Virus record (IMG/VR): IMGVR_UViG_2718218502_000001 | Coordinates: 2,841-66,840 of that record | From: a virus | Reading direction: 5' to 3' (one strand) | Length of the DNA: 64,000 nt | Shown here: piece after piece, positions 13,371 through 23,058 of the stretch | Position numbering within the stretch: the first letter of the stretch is position 1 | Layout: each line of letters starts with the position of its first letter | The notes under the pieces: generated by a model | Databases searched by the model: none | The model's input: only the letters and a program-made list of their open reading frames with translations | What the model was told of the DNA's origin: nothing | Translations under genes and position numbers: made by a program

Positions 13371-14834
13371 CTATTCTTCAAATCTATATCGGATATCTAC
13401 CGCCCCATTTTGGCTTATGTCTATTCGTGCAATTAATTTCTTAAAAACCGGATATAGATTTTCAGAATCCTCTAGCAACTTAAATGCATCTTTTACCTTC
13501 TGCTGCTCGACTATCAATGCTTTAACGTCATCCAATTTTAAAATTTCTAACTCTTTTTCTTTTATATTTTTCGCAAAGTTAGCATCTCGTTTGGTAAAAG
13601 TTTCTTTATCGATAGATCCACCATCTAAATACAAATCTAATAAACGCTCTCTTTTTATCTCTAATTCTTTCTTTTCTTTTCTTAATTTCTTCTGCTTTTC
13701 TTGATGTTTATCTTTATCATTCAATTTAAATACTTTTTCCAAATCTCTCTCTTTTTCTTTTAATTTTCGCAACACAAGAGAACGTAATCTTTCATACCTT
13801 AGTCGGGAGTGTTTGACGCAACCACGTCCACCAGTCAACTTATACGTGCCGCACGTTAAATAACCATAATTAAGCTCTTCACCTTCTTTGTTTTTGTATT
13901 TGTAAGTGTGTAGAACAAACGGTGAACCACAATGAATACAACGTGCTATTCCTCTTAATTCATTCGTTACTGCTACACGCCGCTTTATTTTTTTATTTAT
14001 TTTGGGGTTATTTATTTTATCCCATAACGGACGTTCAATTATAGCCGGATGATGATTTTCAAATACTACCCACTTTTCTCTAGGCTCTTGAATCCGCTTT
14101 TTTCTTCCGTCTACTTTTACCTCTGTAGACCTCCCCATTACATAATCACCTTTATACATAGGATTCGTAATTATTAGCTTCACAGCCGAATAAGTCCACA
14201 ATTTCCCAGACCTCTTATACTTACCAACATCATTTAGTGCATTAGAAATTCTCAAATAGCCTAATCCATTGTCATATAATTCATACATTTCCCGAACAAT
14301 TTCAGCTTCTTCCTGATTAATCACATATTTCTTATCTACAATTTTATAGCCATACGGAACTGTTCCACCAGTGTACTCTCCCCTTCTTACCTTAGCCGCT
14401 AGCGCTGCTGATATAGAAACGGATAATGTCTTAGGTAATTGGGATGCAAACATTGCATACATCTCAAACTTCAAATCATTTTTCCCTTCATAATAACTGT
14501 CATAACCTTCTTCAATCGTCACCAATCGGACACCATGCCCTAACAGTATCTCCTTGATTTCTAATGCGTCCCTCAAATCTCTTCCCAGTCGATGAATAGA
14601 TTTAAAAACAACAGTATCTAATTCTTTTTTACGAGCTTTCCCCAAGATCAACTGCATCGCACGTCTTTCTAGCCATGCTGTTCCAGAAACAGCTTCATCT
14701 TTATAAATTGAATTTTCATCCCACTCGAATCCGTTTTTTTCAATCCAGTATCTACAGATTTCAATCTGATTTTGAATCGATGAAACTTGCTCATCTTTAT
14801 CAGTGGATACACGTACATATACAGCATATTTCAA
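13371..14834 (-). CDS. Large serine recombinase (prophage integrase)
   Basis: YVRVSTD catalytic Ser, SIHRLGRD, recombinase domain, CxxC Zn-ribbon (CIHCGS...C...C), coiled coil. Confidence 0.95.
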   Translation of the reverse strand: MKYAVYVRVSTDKDEQVSSIQNQIEICRYWIEKNGFEWDENSIYKDEAVSGTAWLERRAMQLILGKARKKELDTVVFKSIHRLGRDLRDALEIKEILLGHGVRLVTIEEGYDSYYEGKNDLKFEMYAMFASQLPKTLSVSISAALAAKVRRGEYTGGTVPYGYKIVDKKYVINQEEAEIVREMYELYDNGLGYLRISNALNDVGKYKRSGKLWTYSAVKLIITNPMYKGDYVMGRSTEVKVDGRKKRIQEPREKWVVFENHHPAIIERPLWDKINNPKINKKIKRRVAVTNELRGIARCIHCGSPFVLHTYKYKNKEGEELNYGYLTCGTYKLTGGRGCVKHSRLRYERLRSLVLRKLKEKERDLEKVFKLNDKDKHQEKQKKLRKEKKELEIKRERLLDLYLDGGSIDKETFTKRDANFAKNIKEKELEILKLDDVKALIVEQQKVKDAFKLLEDSENLYPVFKKLIARIDISQNGAVDIRYRFEE

Positions 14835-15237: not shown

Positions 15238-15858
15238 TTAAACACCTGGAACCACATAAACTTTTGCATATATATCATGTTTAGCTGCAAGTTGCTCCAG
15301 CTTTTTTTGTCTGTATTCTGTCATGGTAAAGAAATGAATAAGCGGTATTTTTCCGTTGTATTTATTTTTGTAGTATAACGAAAATTCCCTATACCTGCTC
15401 ATCTTTTCAGCGTTCACATTCATCATTTGCGTACGATCTATTTCTACAGCATGTAGTGTACCTTCTTCATCCCTGAACTTCACATCAGGAATAATTGTCT
15501 TCTTTTTATCATCTACTTTATAACGTATAGGTGTTTCTATCTGCCAGTCGTCGGGACAAAACAGATAGAGCCATGCTTCATTTCTCATTAAGCTGTGAGC
15601 TAGTCGACTATTTGGTACAATCTTCTCTGTATCATCGAACAGTTCACGGCCTTTTTTATTTAAATAATACACGTACTCTTTTTGGTACACTGTATTATTT
15701 ACATAAGGGCTCAGGTCTTTTAAAATACGATTTGCGTTACGAATCCCTCCCATATCGTGCACCGCCATTAGATGCCTACGTGTTGCGAATTTCAGCTTTC
15801 TAATCGAGGTCAGAATCGTCATCTGACGGTCTATTTTGATATGTGTCTGGATGTTCAT
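15238..15858 (-). CDS. Replication-relaxation family protein
   Basis: wHTH N-terminus, HSLMRNE, IIPD, AVEIDRT (PD-(D/E)xK-like). Confidence 0.85.
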   Translation of the reverse strand: MNIQTHIKIDRQMTILTSIRKLKFATRRHLMAVHDMGGIRNANRILKDLSPYVNNTVYQKEYVYYLNKKGRELFDDTEKIVPNSRLAHSLMRNEAWLYLFCPDDWQIETPIRYKVDDKKKTIIPDVKFRDEEGTLHAVEIDRTQMMNVNAEKMSRYREFSLYYKNKYNGKIPLIHFFTMTEYRQKKLEQLAAKHDIYAKVYVVPGV

Positions 15859-16984
15859 CTTTCTTCACCTCGTATTGTTTTAGATGTTTCCACATCAATT
15901 TATCGCTGATAAAGGGTACCTGCAGTTCAATTAGTCGATCTGTTTTATAAATAGCCCTACCAGGTAAGGACGGCAATGTTTCTAGCCCCGATTCATCAAG
16001 GACAACCTCAGATGCCTTATATGTCGGTAGCCGAAATCCTAACTTCGCATCGGACATCTGTTTTACTACTGATGGGATTGACGTAACGGTCGGATATTGT
16101 GTAGCCAGAATCAAACGAAATCCTAAGCCGCCCGATACAGTCGCTATATAACTAAGCATGTACTGACACTCTTCTCGAATTTTATTAATGGGACGTGGTA
16201 ATCCTTTGGCCGGAGCAAGTACGGCACCCTCATCAACAATAACGAAATACCGATCTTTTTCTTTTGTTTCAACAATATTTTTGTAACCATTTTCCTTCAT
16301 GAATTTTCCACGCTCTTCGATTTTTTTCATTATTTGTTTTAGTACATGATGTGCTTTTTCTACAGAATCAGCCACTTCTTCCACCTGTTTTAAGCCGCTG
16401 AACTCGCTAAATTCCAATCCCTTTTCCTTTAAATCAATTAAATATACGTAAGCATTTTCAGGATTCGCCTCAATCAAAGTAGTAAGTAGTACTTTCATAA
16501 ATACTGTTTTCCCCATTCGTGTAAGACCACCTAGTACCATATGAGGAGTTTTATCAAAGTCATGATAAATTAACTTCTCGAGGCTTTGCCCCATCGGTAC
16601 TTGCCATTCACCTTTTTTTACTAGCCCTTCATTCCAACACCACTTTTGTGGGATACGTTTACTGAATACCCGAATCATTATCTTGTAGTTATCGTATTTG
16701 ATACGTACAGGCTTATTTAATCCTTCACTTACAACATCCTCAACCTTTTGTATTAATTTAGATGGCATCCCTAACGGAAGTTTATATACATAAGTCGTAC
16801 TACGATCATCTTCTTTTCTTTCGAGAAAAACCGGATAATGTAATTTTTCATCCTTCCTAATTGCAATCCCACTTACTTCAAAGAATACTTGTATTTTCTT
16901 TCTATCATCCTCTTTACCTTTTAAACTATCATTTAGTAAAGCGTACCCGAGCGAAACTGCAGGTATTAATAACAATTCAAGCAT
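15800..16984 (-). CDS. FtsK/SpoIIIE-family ATPase
   Basis: PHMVLGGLTRMGKT Walker A, IVDEG Walker B, LILATQYP. Confidence 0.92.
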   Translation of the reverse strand: MLELLLIPAVSLGYALLNDSLKGKEDDRKKIQVFFEVSGIAIRKDEKLHYPVFLERKEDDRSTTYVYKLPLGMPSKLIQKVEDVVSEGLNKPVRIKYDNYKIMIRVFSKRIPQKWCWNEGLVKKGEWQVPMGQSLEKLIYHDFDKTPHMVLGGLTRMGKTVFMKVLLTTLIEANPENAYVYLIDLKEKGLEFSEFSGLKQVEEVADSVEKAHHVLKQIMKKIEERGKFMKENGYKNIVETKEKDRYFVIVDEGAVLAPAKGLPRPINKIREECQYMLSYIATVSGGLGFRLILATQYPTVTSIPSVVKQMSDAKLGFRLPTYKASEVVLDESGLETLPSLPGRAIYKTDRLIELQVPFISDKLMWKHLKQYEVKKDEHPDTYQNRPSDDDSDLD

Positions 16985-18289: not shown

Positions 18290-18840
18290 TTGTGCTTTCG
18301 ACTGACAATCATGGGATGAGGGTACAGGACAACGGCTAGGGCAGAGAATGACTACCTTACAACGCTTCAAAAATAAAAAGCGTTGTAAAGTAGACGTTCT
18401 GTCAATCATGGTCTATCGGGTTAAGGAATCCGTATAGTAACACCCTGTTTAAACGCTGTAATCTCTTACACAGCTGACTTTTTACAGATAAAGCTTGTCC
18501 TATCTGCAGAAAGAATCAGGAAAGGAAATGCACTACTGGCGTATCCTTCATTACTCGTAACCTATAATTCTTTCATTATCAGCTGCTACCCGTGCCGTAA
18601 CACGCCAAGCAACCGCCGTACCGTTAATGGCCGTACTCGCCTAGACTCCTAACAACGTAAACAAGGAAACGCTATTCGTTAGGACGCTTAACTTTCTGAC
18701 GTTGGCTTAGCTAACCTGTTCAAGTTTAACGAGTGTTAGGTCATTCCTCGTGTGGATCCTCCTCTTAGTTACCTAAAAAAGACAATAGGAAACTAGACCT
18801 CGTGTATATCTGTTTTTTCAAATGAAGATACTCACGAGGC
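18290..18840. other. ORF-free, GC-enriched, hairpin-rich region (ncRNA or single-strand origin candidate)
   Basis: Stems CTACCTTACAACGCTT/AAGCGTTGTAAAGTAG, CAGATA/TATCTG, CCTAAC/GTTAGG, CCTCGTG/CACGAGG. Confidence 0.5.
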
Positions 18841-19150
18841 TGGAGGTTGTCCGATATTTAGTTAAAGAAAGAGCTTATAGAACATGAGCTATAAGCATAT
18901 TGATAATGAATAAAACCGAAGCTACAGTATAAAAACCATAAAACCAAATACAATCAGATTTTGTTTCTAAACCGAAGTAATCGCTTATTTTTTGCATATA
19001 TACCGTTCCACCCTTCTCGTTTCATAAAAGTATGACTCTAGAAGTAAAACTTTGTTAGTGTTAATATATAACTCTAGGAGTCATACGTCAATAGTCTTTC
19101 GAAAAAAGTTTTACTTTGATATGTAAATTGTGTAAAATGTAAAGTAATAA

Positions 19151-19417
19151 ATGATCGGAATGAACGGAGGTATTACCATGAGTTCTATGGTATTCACTTT
19201 AGGAGAAACAATGGAGGAAATTGGGATTACCAAAAACAAGTTAGCAGTCGAATCAAAAGTTCGTCCAGCCACTATTAGTAATCTAGTTAATGGTGAGGTT
19301 GGTCTTGTACGTTTTGACACATTAAAGTCAATCCTGGATGCTTTAAATCAATTAGCTGAAGAAAACGGTGTTGATAAAACATACCGTATTGAAGACGTTG
19401 TACAGTACATAAAATAA
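19151..19417 (+). CDS. XRE HTH regulator
   Basis: ITKNKLAVESKVRPATISNLVNG HTH; probable start at the MSSMV ATG after RBS GGAGG. Confidence 0.85.
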   Translation: MIGMNGGITMSSMVFTLGETMEEIGITKNKLAVESKVRPATISNLVNGEVGLVRFDTLKSILDALNQLAEENGVDKTYRIEDVVQYIK

Positions 19418-19456
19418 ATGTACTGTTTTTGTTTATAGAAATATTTCTTAATACTC

Positions 19457-19465
19457 TGATATAAT
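19457..19465 (+). promoter_or_regulatory. Extended -10 SigA-type promoter for the 19494-21407 operon
   Basis: TGATATAAT. Confidence 0.5.
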
Positions 19466-19493
19466 TATTTAAAAATGGTAAAGGAGGAGAAAT

Positions 19494-19823
19494 ATGGAGA
19501 CAAAAACAACGGCAGACGGTAATACGTTTATCATTGAAGTGGATCAAAAAAATAGTTCCAGAAAAGAAAAATTCGCCCGTAAAACTTCATTGGTTTTCGG
19601 TATTTTTGGTATCATTTTTTCTGTTATTTTAGGTATCACAATAGTCGGGTTATTTTTCGCTATCCCACTGTTTCTTTTTGCATTAGGCCTTATATATGCA
19701 GCATTTGAAAAACAAGAAATACAGTGCCCTAACTGTAATCACAAACAAAGAATTACAAAAGGAAATGGGTATTTCGATTGTGGGAGCTGCAAGAAACGTA
19801 CTTTAGTAGAATGGAAAAATTAG
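19494..19823 (+). CDS. 2-TM membrane protein with C-terminal Zn ribbon
   Basis: Hydrophobic hairpin then CPNC...CGSC; RBS AAAGGAGG. Confidence 0.85.
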   Translation: METKTTADGNTFIIEVDQKNSSRKEKFARKTSLVFGIFGIIFSVILGITIVGLFFAIPLFLFALGLIYAAFEKQEIQCPNCNHKQRITKGNGYFDCGSCKKRTLVEWKN

Positions 19824-19855
19824 AAGTTTATAAACATGTTTAAAGGAGTGTACAT

Positions 19856-20053
19856 ATGACTTTAGATGTATTTTTATGGTCAGTAATAGCCAGCATAGTA
19901 GCCGCAGTTATTTTTGGAGGGGCTGCTACTTATAAGATTACAAATAGAAATAAAACAAAGAAAAAAATTAATCAAAAAGGAAATAACAATACAGCTTATA
20001 TGGATTCTACAGTCAATATAAACTCTGATAACAAGAACAAGGATGATAAATAG
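19856..20053 (+). CDS. Small single-TM protein with C-terminal curli-like motif
   Basis: N-terminal TM helix, basic linker, INQKGNNNTAYMDSTVNI; RBS AAAGGAG. Confidence 0.75.
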   Translation: MTLDVFLWSVIASIVAAVIFGGAATYKITNRNKTKKKINQKGNNNTAYMDSTVNINSDNKNKDDK

Positions 20054-21407
20054 TATGTTTGATAAAAGAGATACAATAGAACAATCAGGTAATAAAAACC
20101 TTGCTATTCAAAATTCACAAATAAATGTCGTTATTTCTATTTATGATGAAATAGATCGATTGATACGAAACGGAAAATTCATTGAAGTTGCAGAGCTTAT
20201 GAAACAAGTAAATAGTTTTATTGGAACTAAGCACCCTTTTTATCCACATTATCGTTATAAACCTGTTCAATTTGGGGACATAGTTATTTATGAACATGAA
20301 CCACTTACTTCCGAAGCTAAAGAAAAATATCCTTTATCTTTGAAGGGAACATTTAAAATCCCTAAAGAGAAATTAGATGGATATAACACTTTAGATGAAT
20401 TACTCGAGGATGCGTACTTTAAACAAGAGGAAATTGAAATAAATATGACTTCCTTAGCCACTTGGCTAGGTGATACCCTTGTTGAAACGCCGAATTTAGA
20501 TGCTTCTTTATCAAGCGCAAAGGCTAAATGGGTTATTTCACCAAAACCACTACCTGAACCGTTAAAGTTAAGTTTATATTTTAAAGGTAAAACAGATATC
20601 ACTATAATAGACTACTTAGAAATGGGTATTAGCGGTAAAGAGGACAATAAATTTATTCTCATTGATAACAGTAAACAAAAAAATACTAAGCTACTAGTAT
20701 CTCTTGTATTACCAATTAATTCAAATTCCGAAGGTGAATACATATCAATCCATGGTGCTACAATAAACTTGAAAATAAAAAGTGAGTTTCGAGGCAATGT
20801 GGAAGCACTGCGAAGCTTGCTTTATTTCTTTAAGCTAACCTCAGATAAAAGTAAAAAGCTTGCACTTAAAAACCTTCCAGAAAATAACGATTTTCTAATA
20901 GTATCGAGCGTTAGTTTTAACGGCGACATTACTGAAGTGGAAAAAGACTATCACTTTTTTGAGAGACTTTTTAAAGTAGAAAAGTACTATAATATTACTT
21001 TCACCGTACCAGAAATATTAAATCCAAACGATTGGGAAGCATTAGAAATACTAGAACATTCCATGGAAAACAAACCGATTATAAAGAAACTCAAAAAATT
21101 CACAGTAACATTCACAGAAAAAGAATCAGTCCAAAATATACTTAGCGTTTTCGATTCGGAAAAAATCGTCAAAAAGTTAATGTTTACAACGTCAGGACCT
21201 GAAGCTCGAATAGAATTTTTTAATGCAGTGATTCCAATAGAGAAAGTAGAAAATATATACAATAGTGTACAAATTGTTGATTTAGATCGGTTACATGGCA
21301 AATTGGAGTACATGGATGAAGGCGAAAGCATTAAGATAGTCTTTGTCCCCGGCGAAGACCCTGAATTTAAACAGTTGTATTATTTTAAAACTGCATCCGA
21401 AATTTAG
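20043..21407 (+). CDS. Hypothetical 454-aa protein with N-terminal curli-like motif; candidate anti-phage protein
   Basis: Overlaps the upstream stop; IEQSGNKNLAIQNSQINV; C-terminal part loosely recalls AbiGii_2-type proteins (unverified). Confidence 0.8.
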   Translation: MINSMFDKRDTIEQSGNKNLAIQNSQINVVISIYDEIDRLIRNGKFIEVAELMKQVNSFIGTKHPFYPHYRYKPVQFGDIVIYEHEPLTSEAKEKYPLSLKGTFKIPKEKLDGYNTLDELLEDAYFKQEEIEINMTSLATWLGDTLVETPNLDASLSSAKAKWVISPKPLPEPLKLSLYFKGKTDITIIDYLEMGISGKEDNKFILIDNSKQKNTKLLVSLVLPINSNSEGEYISIHGATINLKIKSEFRGNVEALRSLLYFFKLTSDKSKKLALKNLPENNDFLIVSSVSFNGDITEVEKDYHFFERLFKVEKYYNITFTVPEILNPNDWEALEILEHSMENKPIIKKLKKFTVTFTEKESVQNILSVFDSEKIVKKLMFTTSGPEARIEFFNAVIPIEKVENIYNSVQIVDLDRLHGKLEYMDEGESIKIVFVPGEDPEFKQLYYFKTASEI

Positions 21408-21480
21408 GAACATTTTCTATTTTATAAAACGATAAAATAACACTTCATATAATATGAGGTGTTATTTTCAAACTTTTAAA

Positions 21481-21494
21481 AGAACACTCGTTCG
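21481..21494 (+). promoter_or_regulatory. LexA (SOS/Cheo) box upstream of the yolD-like gene
   Basis: aGAACactcGTTCg versus consensus CGAAC-N4-GTTCG. Confidence 0.7.
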
Positions 21495-21532
21495 TATATA
21501 ATAGATATAAATTATACGAATCGGGGAACATC

Positions 21533-21886
21533 ATGGAAAAGCATAACTGGGGAACACCAAAATTACGCGGGAGAGGTATGGTGAAGTGGCAGCCTTTTGC
21601 CTCATTACCAGAACAGTTCGAAGGAATTAGAGAAATACTGAATGACTTGAATAAAGTGCCAAAACCAATTGTTACTGAGGATATGAAAGAACAACTGCAA
21701 ATCGGACTACTGCATTCTTTACAAAATAAAGAAGAAATACACATCTATTACTATCGTGACGGAATGGTGCACGACATGTACATAAATGTATTACATATCG
21801 AACCGATGACAAGAACTGTATATTGTACAGATGCGTTTGGTTCGAATACGGAGTTTAGGTTTGATGAATTGGTGAATATAAATTAA
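21533..21886 (+). CDS. YolD-like protein
   Basis: RGRGMVKWQPFASLPEQ YolD signature. Confidence 0.9.
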   Translation: MEKHNWGTPKLRGRGMVKWQPFASLPEQFEGIREILNDLNKVPKPIVTEDMKEQLQIGLLHSLQNKEEIHIYYYRDGMVHDMYINVLHIEPMTRTVYCTDAFGSNTEFRFDELVNIN

Positions 21887-21993
21887 ACAGTCCGCAATTT
21901 ATATAGTACGAGAAAATCACCTTACATTTCTCTCCTTTAATTGGTATGATTTTCTTAACGTACTAGAAGTCTTAAAGAGAAGGAGAATATTCA

Positions 21994-22212
21994 ATGTCTA
22001 TAAAAAAACAAGCAAACAAATTGCAGGACCGTCAATTGAAATATGTACTTACTAAATATATTATTCCTAATAAAGGATTGGATTTTAATGAAATTAGAAC
22101 TGAAGAAGAGTGGAATGATATTCAGGAAGGGTTGAAAAAATATCATAATCTTTCTGAAGATGAGCACATGGAATTATCCCTTTCAATTAAAAATGGTACT
22201 TACGAACTATAA
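21994..22212 (+). CDS. Hypothetical protein (moron)
   Basis: RBS AAGGAG; terminator GCCGCCC/GGACGGC follows. Confidence 0.7.
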   Translation: MSIKKQANKLQDRQLKYVLTKYIIPNKGLDFNEIRTEEEWNDIQEGLKKYHNLSEDEHMELSLSIKNGTYEL

Positions 22213-22269
22213 ACAAATAAGCCGCCCAACAGGACGGCTCTTATTTATGTTCATCAAACGATTCTTTTA

Positions 22270-23058
22270 TTAAGCTTGCACTTGATAAACTTCGCAATAC
22301 CAATCTTTATAATCTTTGAAATACCATGTGATAGCACCTAATTTATTACGGTCATCAACAGGCTCACATTGTAGATAGAAAATACCGTCTCCTTCATAAA
22401 CTAAGTTACCCTTCACTTTGAATTCAGCGAGTTTATCCATAATCTCTTGAGCTAAATTAATTCCTAATCCACCTGATTTCATTGTCCATTTCATTCTTTC
22501 TCCTCCTGTCGGTGGTGTGCTTGGTACTGATTGAATTGATTTACCGGTAATTACTTCAGCTACAGCTTTAGCAGCCTTATCAAAGTTGGCACGATATTTT
22601 TGCATATCTGTTTCATTATCAATAAAACAAATTTCAGGTAATAAACCAGTCTTTGTTTTATTAATCCAACCTAAATCTGTTGTTAATTTAATACCTCGGT
22701 CTCTCAATCCAAAAGCATCAGCCATTGCTTTTGAAATCTTTGCTGCTAATTCTCTATTCCCGTATGATGGGTGCAACCAAACTTCACAGCCCGTACCACC
22801 TGGAGAAGCATTTAAATGAAATTGTAAATCTACATCACTATCTTTCACTCGTAAGTGGTTATTTGCTGCATTGCTCCAAACAGCGGTTTGCGTTGTACCA
22901 ACTTCATCAGAACAATTCACATACTTCCATCCAGCTGCTTGTACATATTTTGCAACTGCATCAAGGAACTTTCTATCCTCCACATGCTCTTTCCCATAAA
23001 CACTATTTGCGCCTTGTACAATACTATTGTGGCCACCTGAACCTGCAAAACAACCCAT
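22270..23058 (-). CDS. Endolysin, N-acetylmuramoyl-L-alanine amidase (Amidase_3) plus cell-wall-binding domain
   Basis: GGHN, KEH, FHLNA, PEICF Zn/catalytic residues; follows the holin. Confidence 0.9.
   Translation of the reverse strand: MGCFAGSGGHNSIVQGANSVYGKEHVEDRKFLDAVAKYVQAAGWKYVNCSDEVGTTQTAVWSNAANNHLRVKDSDVDLQFHLNASPGGTGCEVWLHPSYGNRELAAKISKAMADAFGLRDRGIKLTTDLGWINKTKTGLLPEICFIDNETDMQKYRANFDKAAKAVAEVITGKSIQSVPSTPPTGGERMKWTMKSGGLGINLAQEIMDKLAEFKVKGNLVYEGDGIFYLQCEPVDDRNKLGAITWYFKDYKDWYCEVYQVQA

Follow-up and report, generated by a model that had tools for sequence, protein, structure and literature searches.

Bacterial amyloid signalling has until now been associated with Bell-domain effectors and with sensors of the NLR or TPR-GreAB-PIN type, and it is known mostly from filamentous Actinobacteria and Cyanobacteria, with one experimentally proven system in Escherichia coli. 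Bell/NLR pairs and their fungal HET-S/NWD2 counterparts occur chiefly in filamentous Actinobacteria, Cyanobacteria and fungi, and Dyrka et al. (bioRxiv 10.1101/2020.01.06.895854) report them as rare or absent in Firmicutes. In Lactococcus, AbiG is a two-gene abortive-infection system composed of AbiGi and AbiGii, for which a phage major tail protein has recently been reported as the trigger (PMC13064643). Here we describe a two-gene cassette in a viral DNA stretch of 64,000 nucleotides (nt), hereafter the window (positions 2,841 to 66,840 of the IMG/VR record IMGVR_UViG_2718218502_000001), which lies within a 74.7-kb IMG/VR provirus from the Bacillus cereus group. The small gene (19856..20053, + strand) encodes a single-pass membrane peptide of 65 amino acids (aa), the proposed effector, and the large gene (20055..21407, + strand) encodes a 450-aa AbiGii-like protein, the proposed sensor; the two proteins have a short motif, or tag, in common. 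A first-pass annotation of this DNA had read the pair as a candidate amyloid-signalling defence system. Both open reading frames (ORFs) and both motif stretches were found exactly where that annotation had placed them, and its interpretation is partly supported by the analysis reported here.

The cassette has the layout of the amyloid-signalling cell-death pairs, with parts and a bacterial group that are new for such pairs. Like Bab/Agp of E. coli ECOR25 (BASS11), it is carried by a prophage or defence island and consists of adjacent collinear genes, of which the one for the small membrane-targeting protein comes first. In both cases a motif of ~20-25 residues stands at the C-terminus of the small protein, and the same motif stands at the extreme N-terminus of a large cytoplasmic sensor. 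The Bab/Agp motif contains Gly breakers and a functionally critical Asn, and the preprint makes no mention of Bacillus or AbiG (Ibarlosa et al., bioRxiv 10.1101/2024.11.07.622273). However, Bab possesses a folded 'Babybell' helical domain, whereas the peptide described here has a single transmembrane (TM) helix followed by a basic linker. Bab/Agp also belongs to Enterobacteria and to another motif sequence family, whereas our cassette belongs to Bacillota, and amyloid formation and defence, proposed for the cassette here, have been demonstrated for Bab/Agp. The Bell/NLR pairs of BASS1-10 and HET-S/NWD2 likewise have a motif in common, located C-terminally in the effector and N-terminally in the sensor. 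The Bell/NLR pairs resemble the present one in three further respects: their genes are collinear, with a gap of <= 10 bp or an overlap; the motifs form several families, and the two partners of a pair carry motifs of the same family; and paralogues of the sensor carry fused effector domains in the N-terminal position. By contrast, neither their NB-ARC/NACHT NTPase nor their Bell/HeLo domain is present here, and the TPR-GreAB-PIN sensor and the Hell, TIR and CHAT effector domains of known pairs were not found here either.

Two other groups of systems invite comparison. The large protein is, by Pfam and PADLOC, a distant sequence relative of AbiGii, and both the cassette and AbiG of the Lactococcus plasmid pCI750 are two-gene units of the phage-defence type on mobile elements. 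However, AbiG has AbiGi as the partner, while the locus described here has the 65-aa TM peptide upstream instead. An N-terminal tag common to the partner has, to our knowledge, not been described for AbiG. AbiGii is without a recognisable fold both in lactococcal AbiG and here (review PMC13064643). Small single-TM toxins, such as those of type I toxin-antitoxin systems and holin-like proteins, resemble the peptide in their length of ~60 aa, their one N-terminal TM helix and their charged C-terminal tail, and membrane perturbation would be a plausible killing route for them and for the peptide alike; however, the peptide is a member of none of these families, and its tail bears a conserved tag matched to a protein partner. 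Overall, the cassette would appear to work like the Bab/Agp and Bell/NLR BASS pairs but is not a member of either family, because the sensor and effector domains differ. Similarly, it contains an AbiGii relative but is no AbiG system, because AbiGi is absent. No description of a pairing between a TM peptide and an AbiGii-like protein was found in the literature searched.

The common motif and its pairing in related loci

In the window pair, the small peptide carries the motif INQKGNNNTAYMDSTVNIN near its C-terminus (aa 38-56, 19967..20023, + strand), and the large protein starts with MFDKRDT-IEQSGNKNLAIQNSQINV, in which the motif occupies aa 8-25 of the 450-aa form (20076..20129, + strand). 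The tag is N/Q/G-rich and ~20 residues long. The best local alignment, between aa 38-55 of the small and aa 8-25 of the large protein, had a BLOSUM62 score of 45 and 8/18 identical positions, as counted in the first-pass annotation. Composition-preserving shuffles of the peptide tail against the head of the large protein gave p = 1.5e-4, and shuffles of the whole small against the whole large protein gave p = 0.015. In addition, the large protein was the top match of the peptide tail among all 60 ORFs of >= 100 aa in the window. The DNA stretches encoding the motifs are identical at 30/54 nt, and only 4/8 of the shared residues use the same codon; therefore, the match has been kept at the protein level by selection and does not reflect a recent DNA duplication. 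The motif had also been called curli-like. It does fit the regular expression Q-x-G-x2-N-x-A, but Pfam Curlin_rpt gave no match in it even at E <= 10. The motif is present as a single copy on the cytoplasmic side of the TM helix, and, judged by these features, the cassette is not curli.

To follow the pair in its relatives, loci with homologues from 99% down to ~25% identity were fetched from isolate genomes, metagenomes, IMG/VR, GenBank phages and a sample of 401 genomes of the order. A gene for a 52-86-aa peptide with a single TM helix lay directly upstream of the large gene in ~30/~30 related loci with readable upstream DNA, and the two genes were separated by a gap of 0-7 nt, typically 1 nt, or overlapped slightly. 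The apparent fusion P0016 (517 aa) was rejected as an exception, since it is an over-extended ORF and the peptide gene is intact in another frame. All members of the small-peptide family that could be placed were found upstream of an AbiGii-like gene. In the 401 Bacillales genomes, matches of a hidden Markov model of the peptide were confined to genomes that also contain the gene for the large protein, with no orphan peptide among them; in one of these genomes the model matched the N-terminus of a large-protein homologue itself (E 2e-5). The prevalence of the system is low, with 5 strong matches in the 401 Bacillales species genomes.

The motif is conserved in both partners down to 37% identity, though it is disordered in the model of the monomer. 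At least three motif families and a weak fourth were recognised, each of them common only to its own pairs, matching insertions included. In family 1 (17 pairs), summarised as I-x-Q-x-G-x2-N-x-A-x3-S-x-I-N-I, both partners show the pattern I-x-Q-x-G-x2-N-x-A-x3-S-x-[IV]-x-[IV]; across the 17 aligned pairs, Q, G, N/P, A and S occupy fixed positions and do not vary in either partner. Rare departures from the common form are found in both partners of a locus: N is replaced by P in L010, GDGN is found in L008, x-T-N in L002 and NVA...TT in L035. Family 2, from Peribacillus, Lysinibacillus and metagenomes, shows the pattern I-x-Q-x-x-G-x2-Q-[IV]-A-[LM]-x2-S-x2-N-x-[IV]-x-I. It differs from family 1 by one additional residue between Q and G, by Q-[IV]-A in place of N-x-A and by two additional residues after S, again in both partners. 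In the distant locus L039, VTI[ND]QSNN is common to both partners, with a score of 61 compared with <= 34 for any other partner. At L031, where the large protein matches Pfam AbiGii_2 with 27 bits, both partners contain G-x-I-x-QD, a weak match (p about 0.03). The 94-aa TM protein of this locus (L031:2121-2405) has two copies of G-x-I-x-QD and its AbiGii-like partner (L031:2417-3709) has one, which recalls the two repeats of HET-s and the single repeat of NWD2. The search for further motif classes in viral contigs yielded this one weak locus and nothing for alignment A6.

The matching of partners was also evaluated with an alignment-free test of 27 pairs. The mean score was 52.4 for cognate partners, 49.1 for non-cognate partners of the same family and 28.6 for partners of different families, and none of 100,000 permutations (0/100,000) reached the observed cognate sum (p < 1e-5). 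Independent drift would equalise cognate and non-cognate similarity; therefore, such a difference is not expected from co-inheritance of the two genes by itself. The first-pass annotation had proposed, as a check of its reading, to look for co-occurrence and co-variation of the motifs among homologous pairs, and the outcome agreed with its prediction.

The small peptide has a TM helix at aa 5-26 (19868-19933) after a 4-residue outside stub, and its best 19-residue hydropathy window is aa 5-23, with a mean Kyte-Doolittle value of 2.29. The helix is followed by the basic linker KITNRNKTKKK (19934-19966; net +6), then by the motif and then by a charged tail. Because the +6 flank is on the C-terminal side of the helix, the peptide is predicted to be oriented N-out/C-in, with the motif in the cytoplasm. 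Profile searches collected 36 members of this family, and M1, A12, Q40, G42, A47 and S51 are invariant in their alignment (A2). No Pfam domain above the cut-off was found in the 65-aa peptide, the NCBIfam type I toxin profile CD_typeI_toxin gave it 16.6 bits against a cut-off of 60, and no Rfam family, as would mark an antisense RNA, was found within 18800-22300.

The large protein matches Pfam AbiGii_2 (PF16873) with 31.6 bits against a gathering cut-off of 25, and the PADLOC AbiGii model matches its aa 97-420 (4.7e-11). One homologue, P0020, has already been named an AbiGii family protein by NCBI, while the large protein itself gave no NCBIfam match. AbiGii_2 was the only domain found in it, with no NTPase, TPR or PIN domain. 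It has 23 close homologues, and an exhaustive profile search gave 404 relatives at E <= 1e-3. In alignment A1, the residues Q10, G12 and A17 never vary, and conservation is >= 90% at I8, N15 and S21. The AlphaFold2 model has a mean predicted local distance difference test (pLDDT) score of 82; aa 1-25 are disordered (pLDDT < 50), and the remainder is compact alpha/beta. The AbiGii-like globular module of mixed alpha/beta type spans aa ~29-445 (20139..21389, + strand). For this module, Foldseek found no solved structural relative in the PDB, and VIA-align gave Z <= 4.4, below the level that the tool counts as meaningful. The weak structural matches (Z 3-4.4; aa 169-294 and 345-446), which we regard as a lead only, were mostly to Hcp, phage tail-tube, Dit and baseplate proteins. 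As a weaker possibility, parts of the module may imitate tail-tube or Hcp folds and assemble together with the major tail protein of the phage, an idea worth considering because that protein is the reported trigger of lactococcal AbiG. AbiGi (PF10899) had no match in the 74.7-kb provirus and none in the control genomes either, and no AbiGi partner was called among the neighbouring genes of the fetched loci.

Sensor, effector and proposed mechanism

The relatives of the AbiGii-like module indicate which partner might sense and which might kill. Relatives of ~430-460 aa have short N/Q/G-rich N-terminal segments of several kinds, and relatives of ~570-600 aa have a helical N-domain of ~170 aa. 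Individual fusions carry other domains in this place, namely DUF1016_N in P0175 and SIR2_2 in L040. AFDB fold clusters include entries named Mrr, DUF4365, SIR2 and HD-CE, and it is the C-terminal part of these proteins that corresponds to the module, with best E values given as 1e-18 and 1e-28. In P0132 and P0179, an N-terminal TM helix and a basic linker are fused directly to the module on the same polypeptide. Since relatives carry fused effectors or a TM helix at the N-terminus, the module looks like a sensor and its N-terminal slot like an effector slot; the 65-aa peptide, which thus sits in the effector position, looks like a detachable membrane effector. Read in this way, the window protein has a mere tag in its effector slot, matched to a TM helix that is encoded by a gene of its own. 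Fungal and bacterial amyloid-signalling pairs were identified by such N-terminal-slot reasoning (bioRxiv 10.1101/2020.01.06.895854, 10.1101/2024.11.07.622273). More generally, we propose, tentatively and with somewhat more doubt than confidence, that the AbiGii-like module is a general phage-sensing domain wired to interchangeable killers, which may be a fused SIR2, PD-(D/E)XK nuclease or HD domain or a bare TM peptide engaged through prion-like tag templating. The ~570-600-aa proteins (P0130-P0207, alignment A4) are the commonest long form; their ~170-aa N-domain is all-helical (fold pLDDT 83) and gave no consistent match in Pfam, PDB or Atlas. An Atlas feature search with this domain gave a hint to NACHT N-terminal helical domains (0.88), which is a lead only.

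The cassette is most likely an abortive-infection defence carried as prophage cargo. For its mechanism we favour amyloid-like homotypic templating that passes from the AbiGii-like sensor to a minimal membrane effector and ends in abortive infection, a reading that we consider to have about an even chance of being correct. We infer the following course of sensing, oligomerisation, cross-beta templating, membrane damage and defence. A phage product, possibly a tail protein by analogy with lactococcal AbiG, would activate the cytoplasmic AbiGii-like sensor. The activated sensors would oligomerise and bring their N-terminal motifs together, and these motifs would take an in-register cross-beta fold that templates the same motif on the membrane peptides. 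The clustered TM helices would then damage or depolarise the membrane, and the infected cell would die before phage release. The tags of the two partners are identical rather than complementary, and identity is what in-register stacking predicts. The AbiGii homology, the N-terminal effector swaps, the TM fusions and the neighbourhoods with prophage, plasmid and restriction-modification genes point the same way as the first-pass annotation. The prophage slot beside lysis genes, the SIR2 gene in the same slot of phBC6A51 and the restriction-modification, KAP and plasmid neighbours form a context typical of defence cargo.

Several observations weigh against templating of this kind. First, the cognate specificity within a motif family is small (52.4 vs 49.1), and within family 2 it was not detected (8.6 identities for cognate partners vs 9.65). 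Second, the 27 pairs are not independent of one another, and roughly 6-8 independent events underlie the co-variation. Third, the motif is single-copy, short and polar and could equally give a stoichiometric beta-strand contact. Fourth, Pfam labels AbiGii a putative 'toxin'.

The main alternative is one that we consider rather unlikely. In this scenario the AbiGii-like protein would be a toxin, and the membrane peptide would replace AbiGi and hold the toxin inactive at the membrane; the tags would pair through ordinary, non-amyloid beta-strand contact, which infection would break or remodel. The Pfam names, with AbiGi as the antitoxin, and the absence of AbiGi here agree with such a scheme, as do genes that look translationally coupled with the small one first, like many toxin-antitoxin operons, and strongly conserved His, Tyr and Glu residues (HP-YPHY-YK, EHEP) that could form an active site. 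However, in relatives this module carries SIR2, nucleases or a TM helix fused to its N-terminus, which is hard to square with the module as the killer. A heterotypic interface should also be complementary, whereas the same residues occupy the same positions in both partners here, and no catalytic fold has been recognised (review PMC13064643).

It is improbable, in our judgement, that the signal runs in the opposite direction, with the membrane peptide sensing holin action, DNA injection or depolarisation and activating the AbiGii-like protein as executor through the tag. The sharing of a tag carries no direction, and the peptide resides in the membrane, the site of early and late phage events. 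Nevertheless, in all characterised amyloid-signalling pairs the N-terminal motif belongs to the sensor and the C-terminal motif to the effector, the relatives put enzymatic effectors where the tag or TM helix sits, and a helix of 22 residues with only a 4-residue stub outside leaves little surface for sensing.

Quite improbable, too, is the idea that the tag is an address for a third party, such as a host protease, a chaperone or a membrane site, or that the cassette works for the phage itself, by timing lysis or by superinfection exclusion at the membrane. In several prophages the cassette does adjoin the lysis module, but it is also found on plasmids and chromosomal islands beside restriction-modification genes, away from lysis genes. 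In addition, the tag families differ in length yet always match their own partner, and this diversification with partner matching argues against a conserved third-party receptor. Finally, a chance likeness of Asn-rich stretches in an AT-rich phage, or a functionless decaying duplication, might be suspected from two N/K-rich proteins and from the modest p value of the whole-protein single-pair test, but it is refuted by the tail-vs-head shuffles, by the differing codons at shared residues, by the constancy of Q, G, N, A and S in both proteins of all 17 aligned family-1 pairs and by the ~30 loci that keep the pairing.

Transcription unit and genomic context

The pair belongs to a predicted transcription unit of three genes on the + strand, which encode a 109-aa TM/zinc-ribbon protein, the 65-aa peptide and the large protein. 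The unit is bounded on its 5' side by a terminator-like hairpin (19402..19426, +), a 9-bp stem and a T-run that end an upstream helix-turn-helix gene. It follows a sigma-A-type promoter with an extended -10 element (TAGAAA-18-TG-TATAAT, 19436..19465, +; 10/12 matches, TG present), which is a consensus match only, as promoter-like sites are not enriched here compared with shuffles. The first-pass annotation had placed an extended -10 promoter in front of the pair; such a site exists, but it precedes the 109-aa gene, a phage backbone gene, and would serve the three-gene unit. The 109-aa gene (19494..19823, +; phrog_10121, PHROG 2.8e-47, with weak Zn-ribbon/DUF5362 Pfam matches) apparently is the first gene of the cargo transcript and is probably co-transcribed with the pair. 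Its product has a TM segment and a C-terminal CxxC...CxxC zinc ribbon and is kept in B. cereus-group phages. It was rejected as a third component of the pair because it is phage backbone; the gene is missing from most other pair loci, and in phBC6A51 it is followed by a SIR2 gene, not by the pair.

A ribosome-binding site, AAAGGAG (19842..19848, +), was read from the sequence 7 nt before the ATG of the small ORF. The two genes of the pair had been described as overlapping, which holds, with an 11-nt overlap, only if the large ORF begins at the alternative upstream ATG 20043 and encodes 454 aa. All 23 close homologues begin at MFDK.., the equivalent of ATG 20055, 1 nt past the TAG of the small ORF (stop 20053), and the two genes are therefore probably adjacent, not overlapping. 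The 3' boundary of the unit is an intrinsic terminator (21434..21473, +) with a 16-bp stem at 21434-21468 followed by a U-run; its RNA fold of -18.2 kcal/mol (z = -6.2) was equalled in stability by 0/200 shuffles.

The closest phage record is Bacillus phage PHBA67-T, with 90.5% identity across 19400-21600. The pair occupies a variable cargo slot, with backbone genes on one side and the endolysin and holin genes on the other. In the window, the pair and a YolD gene fill this slot between the 109-aa gene and the endolysin gene; its counterpart in phBC6A51 (L041:3494-5110, ~ window 19850-21900) contains BC1912, a 538-aa SIR2_2 protein without the AbiGii-like module. The slot thus looks like a variable defence-cargo slot. 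BC1912 was also considered as an effector-swapped sibling and was rejected for its lack of that module (hhalign probability 0.8%). In a Virgibacillus prophage the pair again comes after holin and endolysin genes, and at other loci it adjoins type I restriction-modification genes or KAP NTPase genes or sits on a ParA/RepA plasmid. Between the YolD-like gene and the endolysin gene, a 72-aa ORF (21994-22212, +) weakly matches SNaCT7, a NACHT-associated short C-terminal domain (E 0.005, 17 bits vs a cut-off of 27). Upstream of the cargo region are a large serine integrase (phrog_95, 13371-14834, -) and an FtsK/SpoIIIE-like protein (phrog_1358, 15800-16984, -), and the gene content is consistent with a serine-integrase prophage.

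Implications for Bacillota and the AbiGii family

If the templating mechanism is true, the amyloid-signalling principle extends to the phages and plasmids of Bacillota, and the cassette would be the first such system in this group. The effector would be reducible to a single TM helix and a tag, which would make the peptide the smallest amyloid-controlled cell-death executioner known. The natural motif families would then be ready-made orthogonal tag pairs, with which signalling specified by tag identity could be tested through swaps. For AbiGii, a classic but mechanistically opaque abortive-infection family, the same mechanism would provide a role for its fold and would recast the family as a modular sensor.

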